Sequence record: PQ805429.1
From: Escherichia phage EK5
Direction: 5' to 3' (one strand)
DNA length: 64,000 bases
Shown here one piece after another: positions 2,439-46,303 of this stretch (position 1 is its first letter; every line of letters begins with the position of its first letter). Under the pieces are notes generated by a model. That model worked only from the letters and a program-made list of their open reading frames with translations. It was not told the DNA's origin and searched no databases. The translations under genes and the position numbers were made by a program.

Positions 2439-3243
2439 GCTCCCTGAAGTTGCTATAGTGGATGCTGACGTTCTTCGATATGAAGTGGGTGCTCTTACTC
2501 AGGAGCATCCCTTTCTTGACACAGGACGTGTTCCAGTTGATTACAATTTCATGATTGAACGACTTCAGTACAAGATAGATACAATCATTGCTCGCTCAGG
2601 TTGCAGCAAGGTTGTGTTCTACTTCAGCGAAGGTGGTAACTTCCGTTTTGATGTTGCTAAGCAGCAAGACTATAAAGCAAATAGACCTCCCGGAGAGAGA
2701 CCTTTTCACTGGCAAAATGTTGGTGATTATATTAAAGGTAAATATGAATACATAGATGTATTTGGGAGAGAGGCTGATGATGCACTAGCTGAAAGGCAAC
2801 GTAGGGATAAGAACACTATCATCTGTACTAGAGACAAGGATTTGTTGATAACTCCCGGATGGCACTACCGTTGGGCTTGTGGAGAAAGACAGAAAGAAGT
2901 TCCTCCTCACTATGTATCTGATTTAGTTTCATGGCAAAACTTCTTCTATCAGATGTTGATTGGAGATGGTACAGATAATATCCCCGGATGTGGGGAACGT
3001 AAAGAGGTTATGTGGGGTGGTAAACTTCAGCTTCGACGTCAAGGTATAGGGAAGAAGGCAGCAACTAAATTACTAGCTGATGTTACAGATAAGTGGACCA
3101 TGTATCATATAGTACGAATGGAATATTATAAGAAGTTCGATACTGAAGATGAAGAGAAGATGCTTGAGAATGCTAGGCTGCTCTTTGTTGGTCAGACTCC
3201 GGAAGATTTATTTGATTGGACATGGTTGGATAGAGAATGGTAA
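2425..3243 (+). CDS. 5'-3' exonuclease / flap endonuclease (T7 gp6 or T5 D15 type)
   Basis: PIN/FEN motifs YKANR, GREADDALA, TRDKDL, GDGTDNIPG, GIGKKAATKLL; start uncertain (ATG 2416 or 2425; ORF opens at 2401). Confidence 0.8.
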   Translation: MEEVKLPEVAIVDADVLRYEVGALTQEHPFLDTGRVPVDYNFMIERLQYKIDTIIARSGCSKVVFYFSEGGNFRFDVAKQQDYKANRPPGERPFHWQNVGDYIKGKYEYIDVFGREADDALAERQRRDKNTIICTRDKDLLITPGWHYRWACGERQKEVPPHYVSDLVSWQNFFYQMLIGDGTDNIPGCGERKEVMWGGKLQLRRQGIGKKAATKLLADVTDKWTMYHIVRMEYYKKFDTEDEEKMLENARLLFVGQTPEDLFDWTWLDREW

Positions 3244-3749
3244 CAGATTATAGATCTAGTAATACCCCAGAAGACATTAGAGATTTATGGCAAACTCCTA
3301 AATGGCTGTTTGATTTCTTTAACACAAGGTTTGAATTCTCCTGTGATATAGCATCTAGTGACAAGAATCATCTACTAGAAAAATATATAACAGAGGAAAT
3401 GAATTCTCTAACCTATGATTTCTCTGAGTTCAGAAACACTTACACTTGGTGTAATCCTCCATATTCAGATATAACTCCTTGGGTTGACTTGGCAATCAAA
3501 AACAAGAAACTTAAAGTTGGTACAGTTTTATTACTACCAGCTGATACTTCTGTTAAGTGGTTTACTAAGTGTATAAACCATGCTGATGAGATTGTTTTCA
3601 TAACAGGTGGTCGTGTGAGTTTCACAAGAGCAGATACACAGCAAAGTGTTAGTGGTAACACTAAAGGAAGTGTAGTAGTCATCTTCTCCACTGAAGCAGA
3701 GAGACGTAAGCTCTCAACCTCCTATATAGAAAGAGACTGGATAAAATAA
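3237..3749 (+). CDS. Phage-type DNA N6-adenine methyltransferase
   Basis: Catalytic NPPY motif (WCNPPYSD), N-terminal WQTPKWLF and C-terminal GGRVSF typical of the phage Dam family. Confidence 0.75.
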   Translation: MVTDYRSSNTPEDIRDLWQTPKWLFDFFNTRFEFSCDIASSDKNHLLEKYITEEMNSLTYDFSEFRNTYTWCNPPYSDITPWVDLAIKNKKLKVGTVLLLPADTSVKWFTKCINHADEIVFITGGRVSFTRADTQQSVSGNTKGSVVVIFSTEAERRKLSTSYIERDWIK

Positions 3750-3925
3750 GGATATTATAATGGGTAAATTTGATTATCGTTCATATGATGAAAACTCATC
3801 CAATCGTGAATCTCGTAAAGATCAAAAGATTAAACATCAACTGTTTGATCAGCGAACCGGTCGTATTCCTCGTGAGGGCAAAGTGAGCCATCGTGTAAAC
3901 AAACGAGTTTGGGAAGAAGCTGATT

Positions 3926-4327
3926 ATGGCGAAGTCTGAGAAGACTCGCTGTAGTGGAATGTGGACTGAAGCTCGTTATAACTCTTTCATCAAGTCAGGG
4001 ATTCGTTCTCTGACTAGAAAATGGAAGCCCATGTTCGATGCACTAGCAGACGCCAAGACAGAGCAGAAGATTAATCCAAAGACAGGCAGACTGGCAATGC
4101 ACTTTAAGTGTGCCATGTGTGGTTCTGACCACCCTGTAAAGGATATGGCTATTGACCACATAGAGCCTATAGTTCCTCTTGACCATGAAGCCACTTGGGA
4201 TGAGATCATCTCTCGTGCTCTGTGTGAGAAAGAAGGTTTTCAGGTTCTGTGTAAAGACCCTTGTCATAAGATTAAAACAAAAGAAGAGAATGATGCAAGA
4301 AAACAATTCAAAAAAGGAAATGAGTGA
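3926..4327 (+). CDS. HNH endonuclease
   Basis: CAMCGS...DHIEPIV...LC..PCHKIK arrangement (HNH Cys/His spacing). Confidence 0.55.
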   Translation: MAKSEKTRCSGMWTEARYNSFIKSGIRSLTRKWKPMFDALADAKTEQKINPKTGRLAMHFKCAMCGSDHPVKDMAIDHIEPIVPLDHEATWDEIISRALCEKEGFQVLCKDPCHKIKTKEENDARKQFKKGNE

Positions 4328-4547
4328 TGATCAAAAATCTACGCAACAAGTGCTTCGCTTTCGCTATCGCAATTGGAGAGGCGAGGTTGCTGACCGGTCC
4401 GTTATTCCACTCCGAACCTCCGTTGCTAGCTCCCGTTTTCATAACGGTGGCAAACCTTGTTGGATTATGACAGCGATAGATGTAGAGAAAGATGAGATTC
4501 GAGAGTTCAAACTCTCTGACATTATTCAGTATTACGATTTAATCTAG
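4320..4547 (+). CDS. Hypothetical protein
   Basis: ATG at 4320 overlapping the HNH stop; 75 aa; no recognised motif. Confidence 0.4.
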   Translation: MSDDQKSTQQVLRFRYRNWRGEVADRSVIPLRTSVASSRFHNGGKPCWIMTAIDVEKDEIREFKLSDIIQYYDLI

Positions 4548-4872
4548 GAACTGACATGATCACACAAGCAGATAAAAACAAGCTCTTCGACTTAATCCAT
4601 GACCTACTAGAAGCTCAGAGCTTTATTGATAATGCCGATACTTGGGAGATGGAAGCAGCTGGAAAAGCTTTTGATGAAAGTGAAGAGAAACTTACTAATT
4701 TTATAAACACAATCTAGGAGGGTATATGAATGAAGAAGTTGTTATCCTTGGAAGTAAATCGGATTGGTTCTATGGAGGCATCTCAGGATGCTTTGAAGAT
4801 GAACATCCAGACTTCTGAAGAGAATTGGGATGTATGACGAATTTGATGGTTTTTAAAACTTAGAAACAAATA

Positions 4873-15980: not shown

Positions 15981-18975
15981 ACTCTATCGTTAAACCATTG
16001 ATAGCAGCATTACTATTAACATCATTATCTATAACATTATAGAAAAGGTATGGATGGTTCAGTCTCACCGAGACATGCCTGTCAACACCGATCGTATATG
16101 TCTTAGATGTGTGTGGGTGTCCATATTCATTTGAGAATTGACTACCACCAGCTTCAAATATGTAAGTACCTGAACCAGTTGTCTGAGGTCGGAACCTGTT
16201 AATATGCTTCTGATTCCACTCATTCGTCACATTATCAAAATCTATACCAGTCCTCTCCAACCTCATTTCCAGAGGCTTCTCTATAACAACATCATTTAGC
16301 CTGTCATAGAAGTAATCAAGAGCACCCACATCCACTTGATAGAATCCCTTCAAGAATGAACCTACTATCGTAACCCTCTGTCTAAAGTTTGTTGCATCCT
16401 TTCTCCAAACGAGTTCTTTAATAGATGGGTCATCCCAAGTGATTTCTTGGAAGTCGGACCAGATTGGACCTCTTTCTAAAACAGGAGGATCAACCAGACC
16501 AATACACTGAGCATATGGGATAGTACGGAAGGACCAAGTATCAAACTCGTAGTTCCATACAGCAGCTTTAGTACAAGCGAAGCTTTCTTTTGGCTCCCCC
16601 GGACCTACATACAGAACCCAAACCTCTTTCTTATCCTGATGCAAGTGTACTCGAGTTGCTAAAGGGTTAACCAGACACACCTCGTTAATCAGCATGTTCT
16701 TGACACGGTTAGATGCAATTGATTTCTTAGTTGCACCGTTGTGTAAGATTACATCGTTCTGAGTAACTACGAAGTGACTACCTTCTACTTCAACCACACA
16801 CTCAGGAGCAAGGATACCAGAGTCGTTAAAAAGCTTCTTGAACATTAGAGGTTGGTACGTGTTATTAGTTGGAGAACCAATATACGTTTCAAACTCTGTA
16901 TAAACAAACAAGTAGTCTTTAAGAGGTAGGATATCAATCAAGCTACCATTAGAGTCAGCTAGGTCAATGTAACCAGCATACCCATTCTCTAGAGCCTGAG
17001 TCTGCCCTACGATATTAGAAGCTAAGTCCGAAGACACAACTCGATCATAGGCAAAGTCATCCCACAGTGTAGGAGCCTTGTTCTCATTGGCAAAGTTAGA
17101 CCAACGAAGACGAAGCGGGTAGTTAGTGGTAACACCAGAAGCATTAGCCTCTCTCATATTCAGAGCAAAAAGACGGTTGTTAAAAGATCTTACTCTCTCA
17201 CATTTCCAGTTAAACTTCTTGACTGAAGGGTTTCCATCATTATCAACAACTGTTTGCTCACCCCACCCCGGAAGGTCTACAAAGTATTCTGATTCGAATT
17301 CTTTTACCTGAGGAGTTTCATAGTGAGTTGTAGCAACTGCACAGTTAGAGATAACAGCGTGATACCAAGGATAGTCATCAAAAGCATCGTAATCTTTCTG
17401 AGTCATCTGACTAACAGTACAAGTTACATTAATCTCCCCTTTACGGAGAGCAACCAGTTTGATAGATTTACCAGTGACTGAAGTTGTAGAAACATAGCCA
17501 GTTTTATCAACAGACCATTGATAAGAATAATCACCTTCTGGAGAAGCCGTAGCTGTAATGACAATCTCTTCACCAACATCAAGTGAGGCGCTGACAACAT
17601 CTAAGGTTACAGATGACAAAGGGGTTGCCAGTAAAGAAGCTCTTGCAAAACCTTCAATGTCATTCACGTTAGAGTAGTCATAGAAGTTATTACCTTCGTA
17701 CATCCCTGACGTATCAATACCGGATGTAGGCTCAGCAAAATAAACCGTCTCTTCACTTTCAGGAGGAGTTACTACTTCTTCCTCTTGAGTTTCTACTGGC
17801 TCTGACACAGGAGCAGCAAATGCCATAGCACTTGTCCTCATTGTCCTTCCAGCTAAATCCACACGTACAGTACAGACAGCAACTCTGTTACCTTCTTCAG
17901 TGGTAGCTGTAATCTCAGTAAAACCAGCAAGTAGAGCGTTGATCGTCCCTTGTGTGCTAGTCCCTGATACTGTTGCAATATTTGGATTAGAAGAGGTCCA
18001 AGTAATATTTTGATTAGGGGCGTTAGCAGGAGAAAGGGTAGCAGTTAAGATATACTGAGAACCTCTACTCACAGTAACATCTGACTGGCTTAAAGAGATA
18101 CTATCAATCTGAGGGATGGAAACAACCTCACAAGAAGCAGTCTTAGTTCCGTTATCAGCAGTGATTGTTACATTACCTTCTCCATTCGCTGTAATGACAG
18201 CAGTTAAAGAGTTGGCGTTAGGGGTTACGGATACAATAGAAGCATTATTGCTGGACCAAGTTACAGGGGTCTTGCCAGTAACAGCCGTGAGAGTAGTAGT
18301 CCCTCCTTTACGAATTGTAACAGTATCTTGACTCAAGAAGATACCTGAATCACCATCGATAATATTAACAGCAATCTGAGCCACTACGGATTCGTTGGCA
18401 GTAGAGATAGTTACTACAAGATTACCCTCTTTCTCAAAAGATGTTAGAGTAGCAAGTTTAGAGTCACCAGGGTCTACCGTAATACTTCCATAGGATGAGT
18501 TACTAACCTCCCAAATAAGATCAGTGTTGTTAGCATCAGCAGGGAGAAGAGAAACCTCTAGATTCTTGGTCTGATTGAAGTTCATTGAGATAGTTGATTC
18601 TTTAGGAACAATCTGAGAAACAACTGGATAAATCTTAATTGAGGCAGAAGCCTTCTTAGTGACTGTAGCAACCTTACGGCTAATATCAGTCAAGCTTTCA
18701 TCTGTCAGTTTATATAACTTCTTATCCGTACCTACAACAAGAAAGCTATTACCTGCGCTATAATAATCGAAAGGCATAGAAACGAAAGACAGAGGGGTTA
18801 AATCCTTATCTTCATCTACATAAGAAAGAGGGGCATTGCCCCCCGTCTTAAATACTCTCTGCTCAACAAATCGAGCATTTATAGCATTAGTGAAAGCATT
18901 AGGAGCTAAGTCTGTCGGAGCCTGATCAGCGATAACGCCTACAGCACCTAGTGACTTTATTGGATACAGCGCCAT
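15958..18975 (-). CDS. Tail protein with bacterial Ig-like (Big_2-type) domains
   Basis: Several ~80-aa T/S/V-rich Ig-like repeats in the middle of a 1005-aa protein. Confidence 0.5.
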   Translation of the reverse strand: MALYPIKSLGAVGVIADQAPTDLAPNAFTNAINARFVEQRVFKTGGNAPLSYVDEDKDLTPLSFVSMPFDYYSAGNSFLVVGTDKKLYKLTDESLTDISRKVATVTKKASASIKIYPVVSQIVPKESTISMNFNQTKNLEVSLLPADANNTDLIWEVSNSSYGSITVDPGDSKLATLTSFEKEGNLVVTISTANESVVAQIAVNIIDGDSGIFLSQDTVTIRKGGTTTLTAVTGKTPVTWSSNNASIVSVTPNANSLTAVITANGEGNVTITADNGTKTASCEVVSIPQIDSISLSQSDVTVSRGSQYILTATLSPANAPNQNITWTSSNPNIATVSGTSTQGTINALLAGFTEITATTEEGNRVAVCTVRVDLAGRTMRTSAMAFAAPVSEPVETQEEEVVTPPESEETVYFAEPTSGIDTSGMYEGNNFYDYSNVNDIEGFARASLLATPLSSVTLDVVSASLDVGEEIVITATASPEGDYSYQWSVDKTGYVSTTSVTGKSIKLVALRKGEINVTCTVSQMTQKDYDAFDDYPWYHAVISNCAVATTHYETPQVKEFESEYFVDLPGWGEQTVVDNDGNPSVKKFNWKCERVRSFNNRLFALNMREANASGVTTNYPLRLRWSNFANENKAPTLWDDFAYDRVVSSDLASNIVGQTQALENGYAGYIDLADSNGSLIDILPLKDYLFVYTEFETYIGSPTNNTYQPLMFKKLFNDSGILAPECVVEVEGSHFVVTQNDVILHNGATKKSIASNRVKNMLINEVCLVNPLATRVHLHQDKKEVWVLYVGPGEPKESFACTKAAVWNYEFDTWSFRTIPYAQCIGLVDPPVLERGPIWSDFQEITWDDPSIKELVWRKDATNFRQRVTIVGSFLKGFYQVDVGALDYFYDRLNDVVIEKPLEMRLERTGIDFDNVTNEWNQKHINRFRPQTTGSGTYIFEAGGSQFSNEYGHPHTSKTYTIGVDRHVSVRLNHPYLFYNVIDNDVNSNAAINGLTIEFAVGGRR

Positions 18976-31765: not shown

Positions 31766-33307
31766 TTAGTAGCTCTGATTCCATCTGCTTACGTTTGCCT
31801 CATACAGAGAAGCACTTCCGTAGCTAACGTCATGCTTAGAGCGACCACGATGTGTAACAGAGCACGCTGAATAGCGCATTGCATCCATTAAGTCATCATG
31901 TTCTTTAATAATCTTACCAACCTTACGGTGATATCTAGCTTTCTCTTCGAATAGCTTAGCGTTAGCGGCTGTGTTAAAGACTTTAAAGCGTCCACTCATC
32001 ATTCTTTCTCGGATATCTGTGATTCCCGGTTCTACAAAGAAGTTCTTTTTACCATCCATTCCAATTTTGTTGTAGAAGGTCTCACTCTGTACGTTAACTC
32101 CTGCATTCTTATAGAATTGAGCAACAGATGAACCACTACCTTTCTCAATATTGTCCGCATCGTGCGGTAGGATGACAGGAATCCACTGACCACGACCATT
32201 AATAGCTGGAGCATGATACACTGGAGTAAAGCCACCTTCTTTATATGAGTCGTAAACATAGATAGTATCCGTGTTTGCGTCGTAAGCTGTCCAAACAGCA
32301 GCAGTTGGGTGATCAATACCAATATCAATTGCACAGACACGTTTCCACGTATCAGGAATTTCGAATGGTTCACATTTAATTGTGTCATCCGATACATCAT
32401 ATATCAAACCACTTCCTAACAATGGCATACCTTTCGAACGCATCTCTAACTGCCACGCTGGAATACCTTCAGTCATATCTTTTATATCTTGGTCAGTGAT
32501 ATGTCCACCTAGGTCTGCATGAGCATCCCACCAAGAAGCATTCTGGAAATATAGAGAACCTGTGTTCTCATCCCCTTCACCTTTCATAAATTTATCTACC
32601 AGTTCAGTTAAACCGTTCTCTGGTGTAGCTGTAATTGTAACTAGACCTTTAGTTGTGAGTGTACGTGTGACGCACTGTGCGAATATAGCCATAGACTCGT
32701 ATGGATCTTCTTCGTCTAACCAAATGTAGTCAACTGTTGCACCCATCAATGTGTGTTCACCCTGTTGGGTTGAACGGAATTCTAATGTACTTAAACCGTC
32801 AAACTCTCCTCTTTCATTTTGATGTTTGATTTGTACGATTTGAAGTTTGTTACCATCTCGTTCTATCGTGTCAATGACGATAGCATCACGAGGAATGACA
32901 CCTGTCCCCAATAAATTTGTATCCTTTCCGATAGGTGTACCAAACAATTCCTTTTGCAATACTTTCCTTGTGGAATCCCCTGTAATACCAACTGCCCATG
33001 CTAAGATAGGTCTTTTAAATTTATATCCTGTCCACCAAGTTGGGTAGCGACCTGTGACATGACAAGCAAACTCGTATGCCTCGCTATAAGATTTACCAAC
33101 ACGGTTCGCTGCACACAAGAATCTAAAGCGATGCTTCAATCCTGCTGCATAAAATTTCTTTTGGAAGTCATACGCCTTGAAAGACAAAATCTTATTATAC
33201 TTCCTCCATTGGTCGCGCTCTTTCAACATATTCAATAGTGCTTTCTTTTCCTCTACACTAAGATTGTTACCAGTTAGAGCTTCATAAATTTGTTTATCTA
33301 ATGACAT
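31766..33307 (-). CDS. Terminase large subunit
   Basis: Walker-A-like CAANRVGKS and C-terminal nuclease motif CAIDIGIDHPTAAVW. Confidence 0.85.
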   Translation of the reverse strand: MSLDKQIYEALTGNNLSVEEKKALLNMLKERDQWRKYNKILSFKAYDFQKKFYAAGLKHRFRFLCAANRVGKSYSEAYEFACHVTGRYPTWWTGYKFKRPILAWAVGITGDSTRKVLQKELFGTPIGKDTNLLGTGVIPRDAIVIDTIERDGNKLQIVQIKHQNERGEFDGLSTLEFRSTQQGEHTLMGATVDYIWLDEEDPYESMAIFAQCVTRTLTTKGLVTITATPENGLTELVDKFMKGEGDENTGSLYFQNASWWDAHADLGGHITDQDIKDMTEGIPAWQLEMRSKGMPLLGSGLIYDVSDDTIKCEPFEIPDTWKRVCAIDIGIDHPTAAVWTAYDANTDTIYVYDSYKEGGFTPVYHAPAINGRGQWIPVILPHDADNIEKGSGSSVAQFYKNAGVNVQSETFYNKIGMDGKKNFFVEPGITDIRERMMSGRFKVFNTAANAKLFEEKARYHRKVGKIIKEHDDLMDAMRYSACSVTHRGRSKHDVSYGSASLYEANVSRWNQSY

Positions 33308-34786: not shown

Positions 34787-35891
34787 AATTCTTCTCCTCT
34801 GAATAAGAGTATAAAGGGCACATCATAAGACCTACCCGTAAAGGCCACCTCACATTAACACCCGTGAGAATACCTGTATTCATTTTCGTAGTCTTCTTCA
34901 GAGAAGCTACCGTATTCATCTTCTGTCATACATCCCTCTGATAAAGTTAAGACATAAAGGGGACGTCATCTTTGATGACTACTTCACATTAAGGCACCCC
35001 CATAAAGGCCATGTCACGTTAAGGCCTATCCATCCATGTGCTGTGTTTAAGCTTACCACATTTACTACATCTCCAAGTGGACTTATAAAAGGTGTGAACT
35101 CTTTCATCCCCGTAAGCTTTGCGTATCCGATAGTACTCATGATCACATTTGAATTGCTTAATGATTAACTTAATTTTCCACATAAGTTCTCTTTCAACCT
35201 TATATATAAGAGTTTAAAATTCTGATTTGACCGAGTGGGGCTAGCCGCTTCCCGCGCGTTTCCTAAAAAGGGGGAGTCCTCATTTAAAAAAGGGTTATTG
35301 GCAATGCCTTTACCTTCCCTTTCAACGTTCCACCTCTCCCCGTGCCTACTCCCCGTAATTATTCCCCCGTGTATACTACCCAATACATTAGCTACCCGTT
35401 TATTTAGTACCCCTTTAAAGAGTGAGAGAAAGGCTAGCACTGTATAAACTAGTACAGGCACAATCATAACAGGTCTAATAATACCCATAAGTAATAGTCG
35501 CAGCTCCCCATAGTTTGAGTGTAAATAGTTTCAATAGTAATGATTATGAGTGCAATAATGATGTATGTATTAATTAAGTGGAAAGATTATGTTTCTTTTA
35601 ATTGTTTCTTTTATTCTTTCCTTTTTCAGCGTACATGAGCGTAGCGAATGGTCTTTGATGTTTGAGTTAACTAATTATTTAAGTGGTATATTATTACCGC
35701 ACTATCTTGCATGTTTCCCCGTGGTCTGTCCTGCGGTTGTTGTATCCCCGTTTGTCCTGGTCTGTTGGTCTGTTACCCGTAGTGTTATAAAGTAACAATA
35801 AGAAGTAAGCTGATTCTCTGAGTATGGAAAGTTTAGCAAATTAAATTCCTTTAGTTTTCAGTGAGTTATAGGAAAGTTAGAAAATAAATGG

Positions 35892-35919
35892 TTGACAGCC
35901 TTTTCCTTTATTATATAGT
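35892..35919 (+). promoter_or_regulatory. Sigma70-type early promoter
   Basis: TTGACA, 16-nt spacer, TATAGT; about 45 nt upstream of the first rightward gene at 35964. Confidence 0.55.
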
Positions 35920-35963
35920 TGCGATTGTAGTTTGTAGTTTTCATCAACCATAAGGAATATCAA

Positions 35964-36836
35964 ATGTCTAAAGTAGCAATTAACCACTTGAACAAAGCAA
36001 ACGAAAGCCTTTCCTCTTTAGGCTTAACCGTTGGTAGTCCTGATGCGTGGATGGAAAACGAAAGTGCACGTAAAGGATTCAAAAACTCAATCATGTTGGC
36101 TTGCTTGATCATCAATTCTACTGCGAACGCTTTACAGTGTGAAGATGAAAGCACGTTCAAAGAGAACGGTTTTACCGATATGCAGGACGCTATTAATTGC
36201 TACATTCAGGCTAATTTAGATAGCTGGAATCAGAAAGATTGGCCTGAGTCGTGCCGTGATGTGAAAGCTGAATTATCCCGCTTGTCTGTCATGGTTGAAG
36301 CATGGAACAAGAAAAACAAGAAACAGCCAATCAAGCCTACTGTTGCAAGTAAGATTATGAAGTCTGTTAATCTGGCAAGTTATGCACTGGTTGCAGCTAT
36401 TGGTGTTAGTGCACTGGTCACATCTCTTTCTGATAAGGCTATCGCTAGTCCTACTCCTGCAACTGATGCCGCTGATGTTTTCGCTAGTTCCATCAATAAG
36501 GGTTGGATGATTTGCAACGGTGCGGATAGTGATGGAAGTACTATTGTATTAAAAATGAAGTTTAGCAACGTAACTAATGATGGCGTTCTCTTTCAGTCTA
36601 AGACACTAGACAATCAGCCTAACAATGATCTAGTTCTCAAGCGCACCGATAGTGACTCGGATATGGTTACATTTGGCACTGTACAACGTTACGAAGACGT
36701 TAAAGCTGTAACCAATCTAGTGAGTTATGGTCCGGTTAATGAGTCGATGATCGCCACTACCGTTTATAATAACGCTGATAACGCTGTTTATACCGTTCAC
36801 GTTAATTTAGCCAACTGCATTAAGGCTAGTAAGTAA
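35964..36836 (+). CDS. Early protein with central hydrophobic segment
   Basis: First gene after the promoter; predicted TM VNLASYALVAAIGVSALVTSL. Confidence 0.5.
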   Translation: MSKVAINHLNKANESLSSLGLTVGSPDAWMENESARKGFKNSIMLACLIINSTANALQCEDESTFKENGFTDMQDAINCYIQANLDSWNQKDWPESCRDVKAELSRLSVMVEAWNKKNKKQPIKPTVASKIMKSVNLASYALVAAIGVSALVTSLSDKAIASPTPATDAADVFASSINKGWMICNGADSDGSTIVLKMKFSNVTNDGVLFQSKTLDNQPNNDLVLKRTDSDSDMVTFGTVQRYEDVKAVTNLVSYGPVNESMIATTVYNNADNAVYTVHVNLANCIKASK

Positions 36837-37474: not shown

Positions 37475-37840
37475 ATGGGTGTTATCAAGTTTGTAGTGAA
37501 AGTATTTGTAGGCTTCTTTCTGGTTGTTCTCCTGTTAGGTGTCCTGCTGTCATCTATGGGTAGCGTTAAGGCTGCAACATTTTCCCCTGATACGGTTGAC
37601 GGTTTACAGTGCACCTATTTGATAGAAAACTATGAAACTGGTAAAAAGTCACCTAAAGTTATTATTTTACATGTGAATGATTTCGAACATGTACAATCAT
37701 ACGATAAAACTATTCAACTGGTAAATGAAACTACCGGTAAACAAATTACGGTGGATCACTTGATGCGCTCATCGTTGACGCTCTTTGATGAGTCCATGAA
37801 TGAAATGGCATCCGGTAACGGTCAATGTGTAAATCCATAG
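37475..37840 (+). CDS. Early membrane/secreted protein
   Basis: N-terminal hydrophobic segment FVGFFLVVLLLGVLLSSMGSVKA; terminator follows. Confidence 0.45.
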   Translation: MGVIKFVVKVFVGFFLVVLLLGVLLSSMGSVKAATFSPDTVDGLQCTYLIENYETGKKSPKVIILHVNDFEHVQSYDKTIQLVNETTGKQITVDHLMRSSLTLFDESMNEMASGNGQCVNP

Positions 37841-37915
37841 GCTTAATCTTTCTCCTGTATTGTGCCGTAGTCATGCCTATGGTCATAATTTATCTGATTC
37901 TCTAATCCTTCCTGT

Positions 37916-37945
37916 AAGCCTCCTAGTGAGGCTTTTCTCTTTTAT
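37916..37945 (+). terminator. Rho-independent terminator
   Basis: AAGCCTC-CTAGT-GAGGCTT hairpin followed by TTCTCTTTT. Confidence 0.6.
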
Positions 37946-38099
37946 GAGGTGATTGTATGCCTTACTCCCTTTTAGCTCGTTGTGATGCGTTTTAGGCCGC
38001 TAAATATCGCTTTACAAGCCGTTTTCTATGATGTATCGCGTGCGCCTGCTCTTTTACCTTCCTATAGTGAAAAAGTTTAAAATAATTTGCTTTACCCTA

Positions 38100-38127
38100 T
38101 TGCAACCTCATCTGATTAGCGTATACT
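38100..38127 (+). promoter_or_regulatory. Sigma70-type promoter in ORF-poor region
   Basis: TTGCAA, 16-nt spacer, TATACT. Confidence 0.45.
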
Positions 38128-38748
38128 TCATTTCATCGGGTACGATGTAAAACATACAAGGCAAGAAATTGCCCCGCTCTTTAAAAATATGATTTGTCTT
38201 ACGGGTGGCGGCGACGTCATTACTATAAGGCGCTCAGTTAATCGGTAGAATTGATTCCTGATTCATACGTGACGCAGGCGGACAATAAGCAATATCAATA
38301 AGCCTTATTTGTTCGATACTTTCAAAAGATTAATGCTTGAAAGCGCACTAGATTCCCTGAAAGACAAATCAGACTTATCATCTTGCCCTTTCGCATAGAT
38401 TCACGCGAGATAAGGGAAAGGAATTAAAAGAAGATGATAAAAAGAGTTGCAAACGTGGTTAAAGTAGTCCATACTAACCACAAGTTAGCAAAACATCGCT
38501 AACTAGTTCCCAAATCAACGTATCGCGGGAAAGGTGGCACATAGTGCAGCGATTAGTTCAGGTGTAGGCGGCCTGTTAATGAATCAGTAAGCCTTCAATG
38601 TGACAGTGATTAGCAGACACTTTAAAAGGCTAAACGCTCTTTAACAATATGAGTCATAAGTTAAGCCTCACCGCTTAATCTTCAATCAAATAAAGCTGAT
38701 TGATATATCCTCCCAATAGCGGGAACGACGAAAAAGATTAAAAAGCGG

Positions 38749-38777
38749 TTGACAGCGAAAACAACATGATTCATAAT
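38749..38777 (+). promoter_or_regulatory. Strong sigma70-type promoter with A-rich upstream element
   Basis: TTGACA, 17-nt spacer, CATAAT, preceded by AAAAAGATTAAAAAG; no ORF with SD within about 900 nt downstream. Confidence 0.55.
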
Positions 38778-39700
38778 GAGCACTCACTAAGCAAATCATC
38801 GCTTCAGTGAAAAGCGTAACAACGGCTAACAGTTGCATAGTGTGAGAAAGCACACTGATAGATTTACCGCTCTTTAATAATTTAAACATTCTCCTATATC
38901 GGTTGAATATGCTTGATGATAATAACCATCGGAAAGCATACCAGATAAAACGGCGTAAAACTCCCTAAATTATCAGGGTAAACAGTTTTACATTCCCTTA
39001 CTGGAAACGTCACCATTGATAAACGGATTCATTGAGTACACGCAAAGACTTGAGCTAATCGCCCACGGTTAAGGGTAGCGGCGGTCATTGCTAACACGGT
39101 GCTACAGTGAAAGAAGTTAATCAGGGTAGGCAATCCCGACGAATTAACGCTCAATTGAGAGCGGCGGGGAGTGGTTAAAAAGTGGCAAATTGCTATTTAA
39201 CAATAAGGTTTAGTGTGAACGTTTACAATGTGAACGGCTTGAGATTCATCTTATGATGAAAGTACATAGTCGGTTTATGTAGTAAACTTGCCGAAAGATA
39301 TAAAACGTCGGAACATTAGACGGTCAATGACTCTTTCGCAATAGTATCCCGTAGTGGGCGATGACTAGCGATTGAGAGTTGATATAAAAGGATAGGCGAG
39401 AGCGAAAGCAAAGTAAACGATATTGCCGACGGTTACAATAACGTAACTAATTAGAGTCGGACGCACTGCCTTATTGTGATGATTGATCATCGCTATCAGG
39501 TCGGCTTCGTTTATAGCGACTAATTAAAGATACCAGATGAAACATCACGGATAAGGGGGCGGCAAGGTTAACTCCTGATAAGACCGCCCCGCTTACCTAT
39601 AACTACTTAACAACGAGTGGTTATAGTTAAGTTAATAGTGACTTAAACAAGCTCATAGAGAGCGGGGCAATAGCGCCCTTACAATTGAAAGGTGAATATT

Positions 39701-40600
39701 ATGGCTAAAATCTTTACTCTGGTTAACGAATCCGGTTTTAATGCTCTGGCTAACAACATTCGCAGTAATAACGCGGCGATCAAACAAGATGTTTCTAACT
39801 TCCTGTTAGGTCATTTGCAGCACTTTCGTAGCAACGGTAAGAAGTTAGATGTATTGCAGGCGGCGGTTGACTTCCTGTTAACCGAACGTTTCCGCGATAT
39901 GGATGTTATTGCCACCGCGATTACTTTCTTAACTCCTATCAAGTTTAACACCGATGCGGCAAATGGTCGTAAAAAGTGGATTAATCTGGAAGGTGAGGCG
40001 AAAGCTAAAGAAGATGCGAAAGAAGCGCAAATTAAGGCCAAAATGGAACAAAACCGCGCTCGCTGGTCAAACGCTTTCGAAAACTTTGCATTAGGTCGTG
40101 CAATTGAAGTGGATAATCCTAACTTCTACAAAGGTTGCAATGACAACGTGGCGGCACACCTGCAAATTCCGGCGAAAAACAAGGAAGATTTTAATCAGGA
40201 TATTTACGCTTTGGTTGAACGCTTGAATGCAATCCGTATTGAAGCCAAATTACTGGCTGATGAGCGCAACGGCGCAACCAGCGATAACACTATCGCCCTG
40301 AGTGAAGAAGTTGGGAAGGTTAAAAAGTCCTTTGATTCACTCATCAAGAAAATCACGGCCTCGACGGTAGCGATCTCGGATGATTATCTGATGAACGCAT
40401 CAAGCAAGGAATTAGAATCACTCGATTCATACGCTGATGAAATGGAAAAGACTGTTGCAGCTATGCAGGAGAAGTTAGAAAGTCTGCGCGGTCGTATCTC
40501 TTCAACGGTTGCTACCCGTAGCGAACAAGCGGCGAAAGCAGAAGAGGAAGAAGTATTGCGTAAAGCGGCTGAAATTATGGCGGCACGTCAAGCGGCATAA
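39701..40600 (+). CDS. Hypothetical protein (about 300 aa, helical, C-terminal coiled coil)
   Basis: ATG 39701 with SD AAAGGTG; terminator follows. Confidence 0.5.
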   Translation: MAKIFTLVNESGFNALANNIRSNNAAIKQDVSNFLLGHLQHFRSNGKKLDVLQAAVDFLLTERFRDMDVIATAITFLTPIKFNTDAANGRKKWINLEGEAKAKEDAKEAQIKAKMEQNRARWSNAFENFALGRAIEVDNPNFYKGCNDNVAAHLQIPAKNKEDFNQDIYALVERLNAIRIEAKLLADERNGATSDNTIALSEEVGKVKKSFDSLIKKITASTVAISDDYLMNASSKELESLDSYADEMEKTVAAMQEKLESLRGRISSTVATRSEQAAKAEEEEVLRKAAEIMAARQAA

Positions 40601-41426: not shown

Positions 41427-41870
41427 GTGGCTAAATCTAAAATCAGCATGAAGGGCGGGCGTTGTTTTGCTATCTCTGAACTAGAGAAAGAGAAACCGAA
41501 GGCAACTAATCACGTTAGTAAGCGTAGTTTAAAACGTCGTGCTGCAAAGGCTGAGGCTGAATCCCATGTTCCTTCCAGTGTGGCAAAGCGTGTAGGCCAT
41601 CGTGTCCATCGGGCTGATGCGTTGTTGTTGGCTGATCATAAACGTTCTTTGTTAAAGAGCGGGGGAGCTAAAACAGAAGAGGAGAAGAAGTTAGAAATCT
41701 TCTGTAATGGTCGCACCCGTGGTAAACAGAAGTTTAAAGGTAGCACGAAAGACCCGCAGGCTTTCCCTAAGACAAGCCAGTGTGCACCTGATGTTTTCTA
41801 CGCAGATAGTAAACACAAGTGGGGCGTTGAAAAATACATTGACCCCATCAAAGAGGCAAGGGTTAAGTAG
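41427..41870 (+). CDS. Basic K/R-rich protein
   Basis: K/R-rich composition; start may be ATG near 41448. Confidence 0.4.
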   Translation: MAKSKISMKGGRCFAISELEKEKPKATNHVSKRSLKRRAAKAEAESHVPSSVAKRVGHRVHRADALLLADHKRSLLKSGGAKTEEEKKLEIFCNGRTRGKQKFKGSTKDPQAFPKTSQCAPDVFYADSKHKWGVEKYIDPIKEARVK

Positions 41871-46227: not shown

Positions 46228-46303
46228 GCACCCTTAGCTCAATGGACAGAGCAGCGACCTTCTAAGTCGTTGGTTACAGGTTCGAGTCCTGTAGGGTGCA
46301 CCA
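46228..46303 (+). tRNA. tRNA-Arg (anticodon UCU, reads AGA), CCA encoded
   Basis: Hand-folded cloverleaf: acceptor GCACCCT/AGGGTGC, D-stem GCTC/GAGC, anticodon stem GCGAC/GTCGT with loop CTTCTAA, T-arm ACAGG-TTCGAGT-CCTGT, discriminator A then CCA. Confidence 0.9.

Follow-up and report, generated by a model that had tools for sequence, protein, structure and literature searches.

Results

The Spacer between the gp125 and gp124 Homologs of Phage EK5

Escherichia phage EK5 (sequence record PQ805429.1) carries, in its early region, a gene-free spacer of ~1.85 kb that extends from the stop codon of the gp125 homolog (37840) to the ATG of the gp124 homolog (39701). Coordinates refer, unless another genome is named, to the window, i.e., the whole 64,000-nucleotide stretch that was analyzed. 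We found the spacer to be composed of promoters, perfect matches to the antitermination element BoxA, and conserved untranslated modules, the largest of which (block C, 38880–39700, plus strand) is predicted to encode a multi-domain structured RNA. No credible open reading frame (ORF) was found in 37841–39700, and the longest ORF between 37840 and 39701 comprises 67 amino acids (aa) on the minus strand. For the 3′ part of the spacer, we aligned 14 genomes over 0.85 kb, from just 5′ of the last BoxA to the gene-124 ATG (mean column identity 89%). Whatever the frame, no stop-free stretch of this part exceeds 66 codons, and the longest one is unconserved; variable alignment columns are spread over the three codon phases without periodicity (103/117/107, p = 0.62). 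The original prediction, which had described ~1.8 kb poor in ORFs, was therefore correct in this respect.

The 1,841-bp region is 99.9% identical to that of Escherichia phage phiEc_1 and matches 97 phage records, all from phiEco32-like podoviruses of the Gordonclarkvirinae (Kuravirus, Suseptimavirus, and Nieuwekanaalvirus). By this similarity, the window is a Kuravirus (phiEco32-like) genome. In phiEco32, phi32_125 and phi32_124 flank the region, which is found ~2.8 kb inside the right end of the genome and is read in the direction away from that end. Its annotation is nearly nil across records, and the few ORF calls made there are mutually discordant. In NC_018835 (NJ01), NC_070989 (CHD5UKE1), and OQ540978, proteins are annotated across the spacer, e.g., a "cathepsin L-like cysteine proteinase A" and up to 10 "hypothetical proteins"; as conserved ORFs are lacking, these calls look like over-annotation.

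The Repeated Motif of the Spacer Matches the BoxA Consensus

A motif, CGCTCTTTAA-N-AAT, had been noted three times in the spacer (near 38176, 38634, and 38869). We located exact copies of CGCTCTTTAAHAAT at 38175, 38635, and 38868, all on the plus strand, so that the earlier positions were right within 1–2 nt. Only 0.10 copies are expected by chance, and none of 100 shuffles reached four matches with at most one mismatch. What had gone unrecognized is the identity of the motif. The gamma-proteobacterial BoxA consensus is GYTCTTTAANA (Baniulyte et al. 2017, PMC5725501), and all three copies match it perfectly: BoxA-1 (38176–38186, GCTCTTTAAAA), BoxA-2 (38636–38646, GCTCTTTAACA), and BoxA-3 (38869–38879, GCTCTTTAATA). 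By its sequence, the motif is thus a perfect BoxA, the predicted loading site for NusB/NusE in antitermination of the ribosomal RNA (rrn) type. With its flanks, BoxA-2 forms the 14-mer CGCTCTTTAACAAT, which is identical to a sequence of the T7 early leader (T7 812–825), located 63 nt past the start of A3 and preceding gene 0.3.

All 13 relatives, which represent three genera, contain four to five perfect copies each in their spacers, again exclusively on the plus strand. Among the 57 BoxA instances in the spacers of the 14 genomes, consensus position 10 varies (A in 29, C in 20, T in 7, and G in 1), and the surroundings of BoxA-3 comprise 31 nt in which variation is limited to the "N" of the consensus and to a single base 3′ of BoxA. 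A near-consensus sigma70 promoter is located upstream of nearly every copy, with 14–160 nt between the −10 hexamer and BoxA, and the copies precede 0.1–0.8 kb of ORF-free RNA. No BoxA occurs in the first early operon, whose translation begins near its start, and this fits a role of BoxA specific to untranslated RNA. Across the whole window, GYTCTTTAANA is matched six times (0.57 expected), three times in the spacer and three times outside. The latter are probably chance matches: one at 41650–41660 (minus strand) lies antisense within a plus-strand gene and is kept in 3 of the 14 genomes, and the two others, at 16413–16423 and 31900–31910 (plus strand), are GTTC variants in parts where strand composition suggests minus-strand genes.

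In principle, the motif could be a DNA-level site for a phage regulator or for recombination, with a merely coincidental likeness to BoxA, and the junctions of the modules described below do coincide with it. We consider this very unlikely, since the copies match an RNA consensus perfectly over 11 positions and vary precisely at its degenerate position, the spacer copies are confined to the transcribed strand and nearly all follow a promoter, and the T7 leader holds an identical sequence; moreover, recombination at the sole shared 14–16-mer is expected without any dedicated function.

The sequences between promoter and BoxA vary in length and sequence by unit and genome, being non-homologous or swapped. 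Many of these leaders end in a hairpin with a GNRA-type loop just before BoxA, and some are only 14–24 nt long and show no clear hairpin. In phage EK5, a small hairpin read from the sequence (GGCAA-GAAA-TTGCC, GNRA loop, 38160–38173) lies 2 nt upstream of BoxA-1, i.e., at the position of boxB in rrn leaders, and another is found at 38839–38856 upstream of BoxA-3. The order of hairpin and then BoxA, with BoxA as the essential element, is that of rrn leaders. It does not correspond to a nut site of the lambda N type: the hairpins lie upstream of BoxA, and a non-exhaustive search found no N-like protein among the neighboring early proteins. Between the terminator of the first early operon and the first promoter, a lambda-like partial BoxA (CTGCTCTTTTACC, 38055–38067) was observed, which fails the consensus; its counterpart in MN05 is CGCTCTTTTATC.

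Promoters of the Spacer

Two near-consensus sigma70 promoters facing right, at 38100–38127 and 38749–38777, had been predicted before. Both are present and are supported by the genome comparison and by the promoter list of phage SU10; a third, at 38447–38475, had been missed. The first promoter, P1 (38100–38127, TTGCAA-16-TATACT, 9 of 12 consensus positions), is preceded by an A/T-rich tract and has a predicted start near 38134. It is kept in phiEc_1, ECBP2, KBNP1711, and 4E8, and other relatives have a different near-consensus promoter in its place. P2 (38447–38475, TTGCAA-17-CATACT, predicted start near 38482) emerged from the cross-genome comparison and is kept in phiEc_1, 4E8, ECBP2, KBNP1711, and MN05; elsewhere, it is replaced by TTGACA-16-TAGAAT or by a version with TAAGCT, the latter being a listed SU10 promoter. 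P3 (38749–38777, TTGACA-17-CATAAT, 11 of 12, predicted start near 38784) is present in all 14 genomes and letter-identical to a predicted early promoter of SU10 listed at 73511. The SU10 genome paper describes three sigma70 promoters in this spacer, as in phiEco32, and the promoter cluster as such is therefore already known from the literature. Regarding sequences upstream of the promoters, the upstream region of the promoter of Kuravirus unit 2 (phiEc_1 4362–4381, CAAAAAAGAGTATTGACA) and that of T7 A1 (452–470, CAAAAAGAGTATTGACT) are nearly identical, which could reflect convergence or a common design of strong promoters that includes an UP-like A-tract.

Since phiEco32 is known for the shut-off of host transcription, promoters and BoxA RNA could also act as decoys that titrate RNA polymerase and NusB/NusE from the rrn operons of the host and thereby aid shut-off. 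The three to five perfect rrn-type BoxA copies behind strong promoters would suit such a role. We nevertheless judge it improbable, as shut-off is already explained by gp79 and decoys need neither conserved 0.8-kb structures nor read-through into an operon. For the earlier suggestion of a promoter cluster titrating host RNA polymerase, we likewise found no specific support: behind the promoters lie functional RNA elements that are conserved, and transcription leads on to the early operon.

Block C Is Predicted to Form a Large Structured RNA

Block C extends over ~0.82 kb from the last BoxA to the start of gene 124. From the 14-genome alignment, RNAalifold predicted 238 base pairs, 71 of which show at least one compensatory double change, compared to 35.8 ± 3.5 in column shuffles and 6–12 in controls with slid partners. 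In this consensus structure, 98.9% of the cells are standard pairs. The covariation score of 0.259 was reached in none of 500 column shuffles (0.131 ± 0.005) and dropped to 0.036–0.061 when pairing partners were slid by 1–3 columns. Covarying long-range helices include 38881–38894/39166–39179, 39009–39024/39116–39131, 39200–39226/39413–39477, and 39287–39292/39395–39400. G-U pairs account for 11.5% of the paired cells and lower the pairing on the minus strand to 87.6%, which identifies the transcript of the plus strand as the folded molecule. The minimum free energy (MFE) of the predicted 919-nt transcript from P3 is −281.9 kcal/mol (shuffles −222.9 ± 7.1, z = −8.3). With compensatory changes beyond controls, strand specificity, and no coding signal, block C has the generic features of structured non-coding RNA, and the seemingly empty DNA is on these grounds taken to encode a structured RNA. 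The suggestion of the original prediction that the region could hold non-coding RNAs is thereby strongly supported.

Two sequences resembling BoxA lie inside block C and are predicted to be base-paired. The first (TGCTATTTAACAAT, 39191–39204, plus strand) has one mismatch to the consensus and is part of an invariant 27-nt stretch; a second, degenerate one was observed at 39326–39339 (GACTCTTTCGCAAT) in a strongly conserved stretch. These sequences may be left over from earlier boundaries between units or may have a structural role.

Searches for relatives of block C remained confined to the phage group. With Rfam 15 at gathering thresholds, only a tRNA-Arg at 46228 passed in the whole window, and permissive matches within 37700–39800 reached, for the best E-values, 18–22 bits, far below their gathering scores. 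A scan for tRNA and transfer-messenger RNA yielded nothing beyond the same tRNA-Arg. In phage records, IMG/VR, and metagenomes, block C was restricted to the Gordonclarkvirinae: two conserved 21–22-mers hit Kuravirus genomes only in IMG/VR, plus one chance match within a coding gene, and a 20-mer retrieved seven more Kuravirus-like contigs and three chance matches from metagenomes. A set of 5,426 E. coli genomes yielded no homolog. When phages PJNS034, TacPo2, T7, and 7-11 were searched with an nhmmer profile built from block C and with a covariance model for one of its domains, nothing but BoxA was detected. We had considered the leader of PJNS034 and TacPo2 as a shorter homolog of block C, which is unsupported, as neither profile nor covariance model found a relative there. 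By these comparisons, the block C RNA would be a new family.

The Ends of Block C and the Start of Gene 124

Near its 3′ end, block C contains a 15-nt inverted repeat of BoxA, here called anti-BoxA (GCTCATAGAGAGCGG, 39651–39665, plus strand), which is invariant in 25 of 25 Kuravirus-like loci examined. Its part TAGAGAGC (39656–39663) is complementary to GCUCUUUA of BoxA, and complementarity amounts to 8–10 bp with BoxA-3 and to 16 bp with BoxA-1 and its flank. BoxA-3 and anti-BoxA are paired in the consensus fold. A second predicted contact involves GATAGATTTACC (38857–38868), located just 5′ of BoxA-3, which pairs with the Shine–Dalgarno (SD) and start region of the gp124 homolog (SD AGGTG and ATG at 39701; 39690–39703, plus strand) in the consensus, MFE, and centroid folds. 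In TH34 and TH42, the SD region has the variant sequence GGTAAATTATC, by which the pairing with GATAGATTTACC is kept or improved. As a hypothesis, these contacts form a closing helix for the large RNA. This would resemble pre-rRNA, in which the leader is retained by the Nus-modified complex and handed over to the complementary sequence past the 3′ end of the 16S part, yielding the RNase III stem; the rrn complexes thus act as RNA chaperones that bring the 5′ leader to the downstream complement.

The same contacts bear on the question of what block C is for. It is possible, though we hold it only tentatively, that block C acts solely in cis, as a leader of the gene-124 early operon that sets the timing of gp124 translation or restricts it, with the SD sequestered until processing or refolding, and stabilizes the mRNA. 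The predicted pairing of GATAGATTTACC with the SD and start, found in all three folds, speaks for this, as do the invariant synteny with gene 124 and the precedent of the T7 0.3 leader, in which a BoxA is followed by an RNase III site. The lambda N leader has the same order of BoxA and RNase III site. However, a multi-domain structure of ~800 nt with many invariant loops far exceeds the needs of known bacterial translational leaders, and a leader function would leave the modules located 5′ of further promoters (A1, L2, and B, see below) unexplained.

Modular Organization of the Spacer and Exchange of Cassettes

Upstream of block C, the spacer consists of modules that differ among relatives. 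In comparison to phiEc_1 (4324–4448), the window lacks, at 38173–38188, a 109-bp unit composed of a promoter (TTGACA-17-TATAGT), a hairpin, and BoxA. The loss is exact between two BoxA-containing direct repeats of 16 nt (CCCGCTCTTTAAAAAT), and BoxA-1 is the deletion junction. All close relatives keep the unit, and its promoter is part of the SU10 list; the loss goes back either to recent recombination or to a collapsed assembly. The blocks 38187–38374 and 38458–38634 (leader of P2) are likewise present or absent among relatives, with breakpoints at BoxA or at the promoter of the next unit. As BoxA is the only sequence common to all units, recombination appears to take place at its copies.

The first of these blocks, A1 (38187–38374, plus strand), is a conserved untranslated RNA module of ~150–190 nt with a decayed promoter at its end, for which RNAalifold predicted 41 pairs, six of them compensatory. 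It is absent from 4E8, SU7, NC-B, Bas86, and TacPo2. A copy with 75% identity was found in the unrelated 65.7-kb phage PJNS034, between two BoxA copies inside a 1.8-kb ORF-free region. In TacPo2, a relative of PJNS034, the corresponding place holds a single BoxA and no A1. The PJNS034 region shares with the Kuravirus spacer just A1 and the motif of BoxA-2 together with the flank on its 3′ side. As further observations on these two phages, the ORF-free regions (PJNS034 3000–4821 and TacPo2 3000–4623, 1.6–1.8 kb) lie between packaging and early genes, contain tandem sigma70 promoters, BoxA copies, and a degenerate paired BoxA-like site, and carry roughly five repeats of CATGCCA at the left end, which might serve as pac or ori signals.

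Module A2 (38375–38440, plus strand) is an irregular hairpin of 66 nt with the lower stem TTATCATCTT/AAGATGATAA. It is near-invariant in the 12 genomes listed for it, the phiEco32 copy differing by one base, and its outer stem covaries (ATCATCTT/AAGATGAT to ATCGTCTT/AAGACGAT); an RNase III site or a stabilizer of 3′ ends are possible functions. Leader L2 (38483–38635, plus strand), the structured sequence of ~150 nt between P2 and BoxA-2, is a variable cassette that several relatives lack. Its core GCGGGAAAGGTGGCACATAGTGCAGCG is identical in TH34 and TH42 despite an overall identity of only ~75%. Module B (38647–38748, plus strand), which occurs in all relatives, is an untranslated RNA with two local hairpins and an A-rich tract before P3. 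Leader L3 (38785–38868, plus strand) forms three hairpins, the last of which (38839–38856, AGTGTG-AGAAAG-CACACT) ends 12 nt before BoxA-3 in a boxB-like position and occurs with the compensatory variants ACGTG/CACGT, GAGGTG/CACCTC, and GAAGTG/CACTTC; the other two hairpins covary as well.

SU7, NC-B, Bas86, TH34, and TH42 carry another cassette, which reaches from BoxA to the next promoter and contains an intact 66-aa ORF (MNVYTFSSKDTQITCTSINVTN...), SU7_114 (SU7 locus 2579–2779). Its five copies differ by conservative changes only, and by this pattern it is probably a real small early gene. This cassette gene, present in some relatives and absent from the window, is the sole conserved ORF that we encountered in the spacers.

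The mobility of such modules invites the reading that block C and A1 are trans-acting non-coding RNAs, made in bulk at the start of infection for host takeover or counter-defence, e.g., as traps for an RNA-binding protein, a nuclease, or a ribosomal or Nus component, with BoxA as a mere delivery device. Block C is large and multi-domain and has invariant single-stranded motifs; A1 behaves as an autonomous cassette that also occurs in the unrelated PJNS034 and is tied to no particular gene; modules come and go between close relatives, like accessory or counter-defence loci; and the promoters are strong. Still, we rate this reading as clearly less than even, because block C is always located directly 5′ of gene 124, with its ends predicted to pair with the ribosome-binding site, which fits a role in cis, and because it has no similarity to any Rfam family. 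On balance, A1 mobility together with the size and loop conservation of block C leans toward RNA products with a function of their own, and the fixed place beside gene 124 together with the predicted SD pairing leans toward a leader.

Genome Setting and Neighboring Features

A predicted intrinsic terminator at 37916–37944 (plus strand, AAGCCTCCTAGTGAGGCTT followed by TTCTCTTTTA), identified by a terminator scan, ends the first early operon (gp128–gp125 homologs); a putative terminator after the homologous gene is given in the SU10 paper. The early proteins encoded next to the spacer remained without assigned function in Pfam and PHROG. At 46228–46303, the window carries a tRNA-Arg gene (anticodon TCT), the typical single tRNA of phiEco32-like phages.

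According to the phiEco32 map, in which the spacer lies close to the right end, the window is a permuted assembly with the physical end near 35.2 kb. From the maps of phiEco32 and 4E8, this end (a direct terminal repeat) should fall at ~35200–36000. The same interval holds the minimum of the cumulative GC skew and several short tandem repeats (35388–35940), and the first early promoter is expected just 5′ of 35964.

The original prediction had also named a replication origin. ColE1 RNA II is a structured primer, and the T7 primary origin sits behind promoters; the arrangement of promoters ahead of a long, structured RNA without translation recalls ColE1 RNA II in outline, so that an origin activated or primed by transcription could be imagined. 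We found no support for it: the region has no DnaA boxes, iterons, tandem repeats, or AT-rich unwinding element, its GC content is ordinary, and the turning point of the GC skew lies ~2 kb upstream, at the genome end with its divergent transcription, where it tracks gene orientation. An origin in the spacer is therefore highly unlikely.

Discussion

We regard it as probable that the spacer is an array of early promoter–BoxA units, in which a BoxA-modified, Rho-resistant host polymerase transcribes long structured RNAs and reads into the early operon. The anatomy of promoters, BoxA copies, and RNA structure, as well as its conservation, is established by the present comparison. Host sigma70 RNA polymerase would start rightwards at P1, P2, and P3 immediately after infection, each unit providing a strong promoter, a short, often hairpin-bearing leader, and a BoxA. 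In the nascent RNA, BoxA would bind NusB/NusE (S10), whereupon NusA, NusG, and SuhB would join to form an rrn-type, Rho-resistant, and faster elongation complex. The modified polymerase would then transcribe 0.8–1.6 kb of untranslated sequence without being stopped by Rho and proceed to gene 124 and the early operon downstream of it. This untranslated RNA would not be filler; instead, it would consist of the conserved folded modules A1, A2 hairpin, L2, B, and block C. The pairings of anti-BoxA and of the SD region would close the large RNA into one domain, like the flanks of pre-16S rRNA, and the closed domain may serve as a mark for processing and/or control the translation of gene 124. The BoxA copies would additionally offer sites for recombination, through which the array acquires, drops, and trades cassettes. 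What we infer from this anatomy comprises the binding of Nus factors, resistance to Rho, processing, and the role of the RNAs. BoxA is known to guard long untranslated transcripts, namely rrn operons and arrays of clustered regularly interspaced short palindromic repeats (CRISPR), against Rho (PMC5725501; Stringer 2020). In the untranslated RNA of the spacer, several 78-nt windows contain more C than G and are possible Rho-loading sites.

Several points weigh against this reading. As structured RNA is a poor substrate for Rho, BoxA may mainly serve elongation speed, folding, or Nus recruitment. The BoxA/anti-BoxA helix is absent from the MFE fold of the single sequence, and covariation cannot test it because both sides are invariant. 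After the three BoxA copies, no G/T-rich boxC (similar to TGTGTGGG) was noticed by eye, a systematic search not having been made. A generic promoter scan found no enrichment, with 11 promoter-like sites and 11.9 expected from shuffles; as the scan alone is not significant, the spacer promoters owe their credibility to the genome comparison and the literature. Finally, the early end of the related phage 7-11 contains no BoxA, and the device is therefore not general to phiEco32-like phages; the authors of the 7-11 study postulated an undefined antitermination strategy.

Among known systems, the rrn operons of E. coli (boxB-boxA-boxC; NusA/B/E/G-SuhB-S4) come closest to the array of promoter–BoxA units. 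BoxA is identical over GCTCTTTAA-N-A and has a small hairpin upstream, strong promoters lead into long structured untranslated RNA, and a helix is predicted between the leader and a site beyond the 3′ end of the structured RNA. In contrast to rrn, where a promoter pair shares one leader BoxA, a lytic phage here uses three to five tandem promoter–BoxA units; furthermore, the phage RNA is unlike rRNA, the unit runs into protein genes, and no boxC was recognized by eye. The T7 early leader (A1, A2, A3, CGCTCTTTAACAAT, RNase III site, gene 0.3) shares the identical BoxA 14-mer, three strong sigma70 early promoters near the end that enters first, a structured element before the first gene, and an A1-like, A-rich upstream sequence. 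T7, however, has one BoxA for three promoters, followed by a leader of ~100 nt, whereas phage EK5 has a BoxA per promoter and 0.8–1.6 kb of untranslated RNA with complex conserved folds, situated behind a first small operon and ~2.8 kb from the end.

BoxA elements of the same consensus, located just after a promoter and acting against Rho, are also found in CRISPR-array leaders and in the 5′ untranslated region of suhB (Stringer 2020, Baniulyte 2017); these are chromosomal single copies, in contrast to the phage-borne, multiple copies coupled to large structured RNAs described here. The lambda nut site (boxA CGCTCTTA and boxB, N-dependent) likewise combines BoxA and a GNRA-type hairpin on a phage early transcript with a termination-resistant polymerase, which in phage EK5 would be the predicted outcome. 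Differences are the position of the hairpin, which lies upstream of BoxA in phage EK5, and the full rrn-consensus BoxA, which works without N. With regard to modularity, the PeSL cassettes of T4-type phages, repeats of early promoter and stem-loop, mediate modular shuffling. As in the spacer, repeated early-promoter/hairpin units flank variable cassettes at their junctions, SU7_114 being one gene cassette; unlike there, the shared element of the spacer is BoxA, and its cassettes are mostly RNA modules instead of ORFs. Lastly, GOLLD, ROOL, OLE, and HEARO are, like block C, RNAs of hundreds of nt with several domains and covariation-backed folds, and GOLLD and ROOL are phage-associated. Block C differs from them in that it has no match in Rfam 15, occurs only in the Gordonclarkvirinae, and is embedded in an early operon leader with BoxA.

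A further-reaching possibility, which we put forward with considerable reserve, is that block C, and perhaps A1 and L2, represent a new class of large structured phage RNAs made by the rRNA transcription and folding machinery of the host. Strong promoter, BoxA, the Nus/SuhB chaperone complex, and a 5′–3′ closing helix would then conceivably have been borrowed together to yield a stable, trans-acting particle, spread between unrelated phages as a BoxA-bounded mobile system of "RNA gene cassettes". Such a particle might act in the first minutes of infection, e.g., by capturing a host protein that binds RNA, belongs to the ribosome, or serves in defence.

In the literature, we found no paper that ties phiEco32 or Kuravirus to BoxA or to structured or non-coding RNA, within a search that did not extend to the primary phiEco32 papers, where an earlier mention is possible. 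A paper on svsR and Kuravirus proved unrelated to this region. Both the BoxA copies and the structured RNA of the spacer thus appear to be undescribed. While BoxA antitermination is a known mechanism, tandem promoter–BoxA cassettes with a 0.8-kb structured RNA in a lytic phage appear to be a new form of it.

phiEco32 is a model for the control of host RNA polymerase by a phage, and its largest intergenic region has so far been deemed a spacer holding promoters. A BoxA after each promoter would offer a concrete answer to how host polymerase crosses 1–2 kb of untranslated DNA, and with the array, a lytic phage would join the few cases in which BoxA is used outside rRNA. Many phages of this kind are under development for therapy, and the annotations of this region are inconsistent among them. 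As the predicted 0.8-kb RNA belongs to an easily grown and genetically tractable phage, its function would be open to direct tests, which is rare for large bacterial non-coding RNAs.

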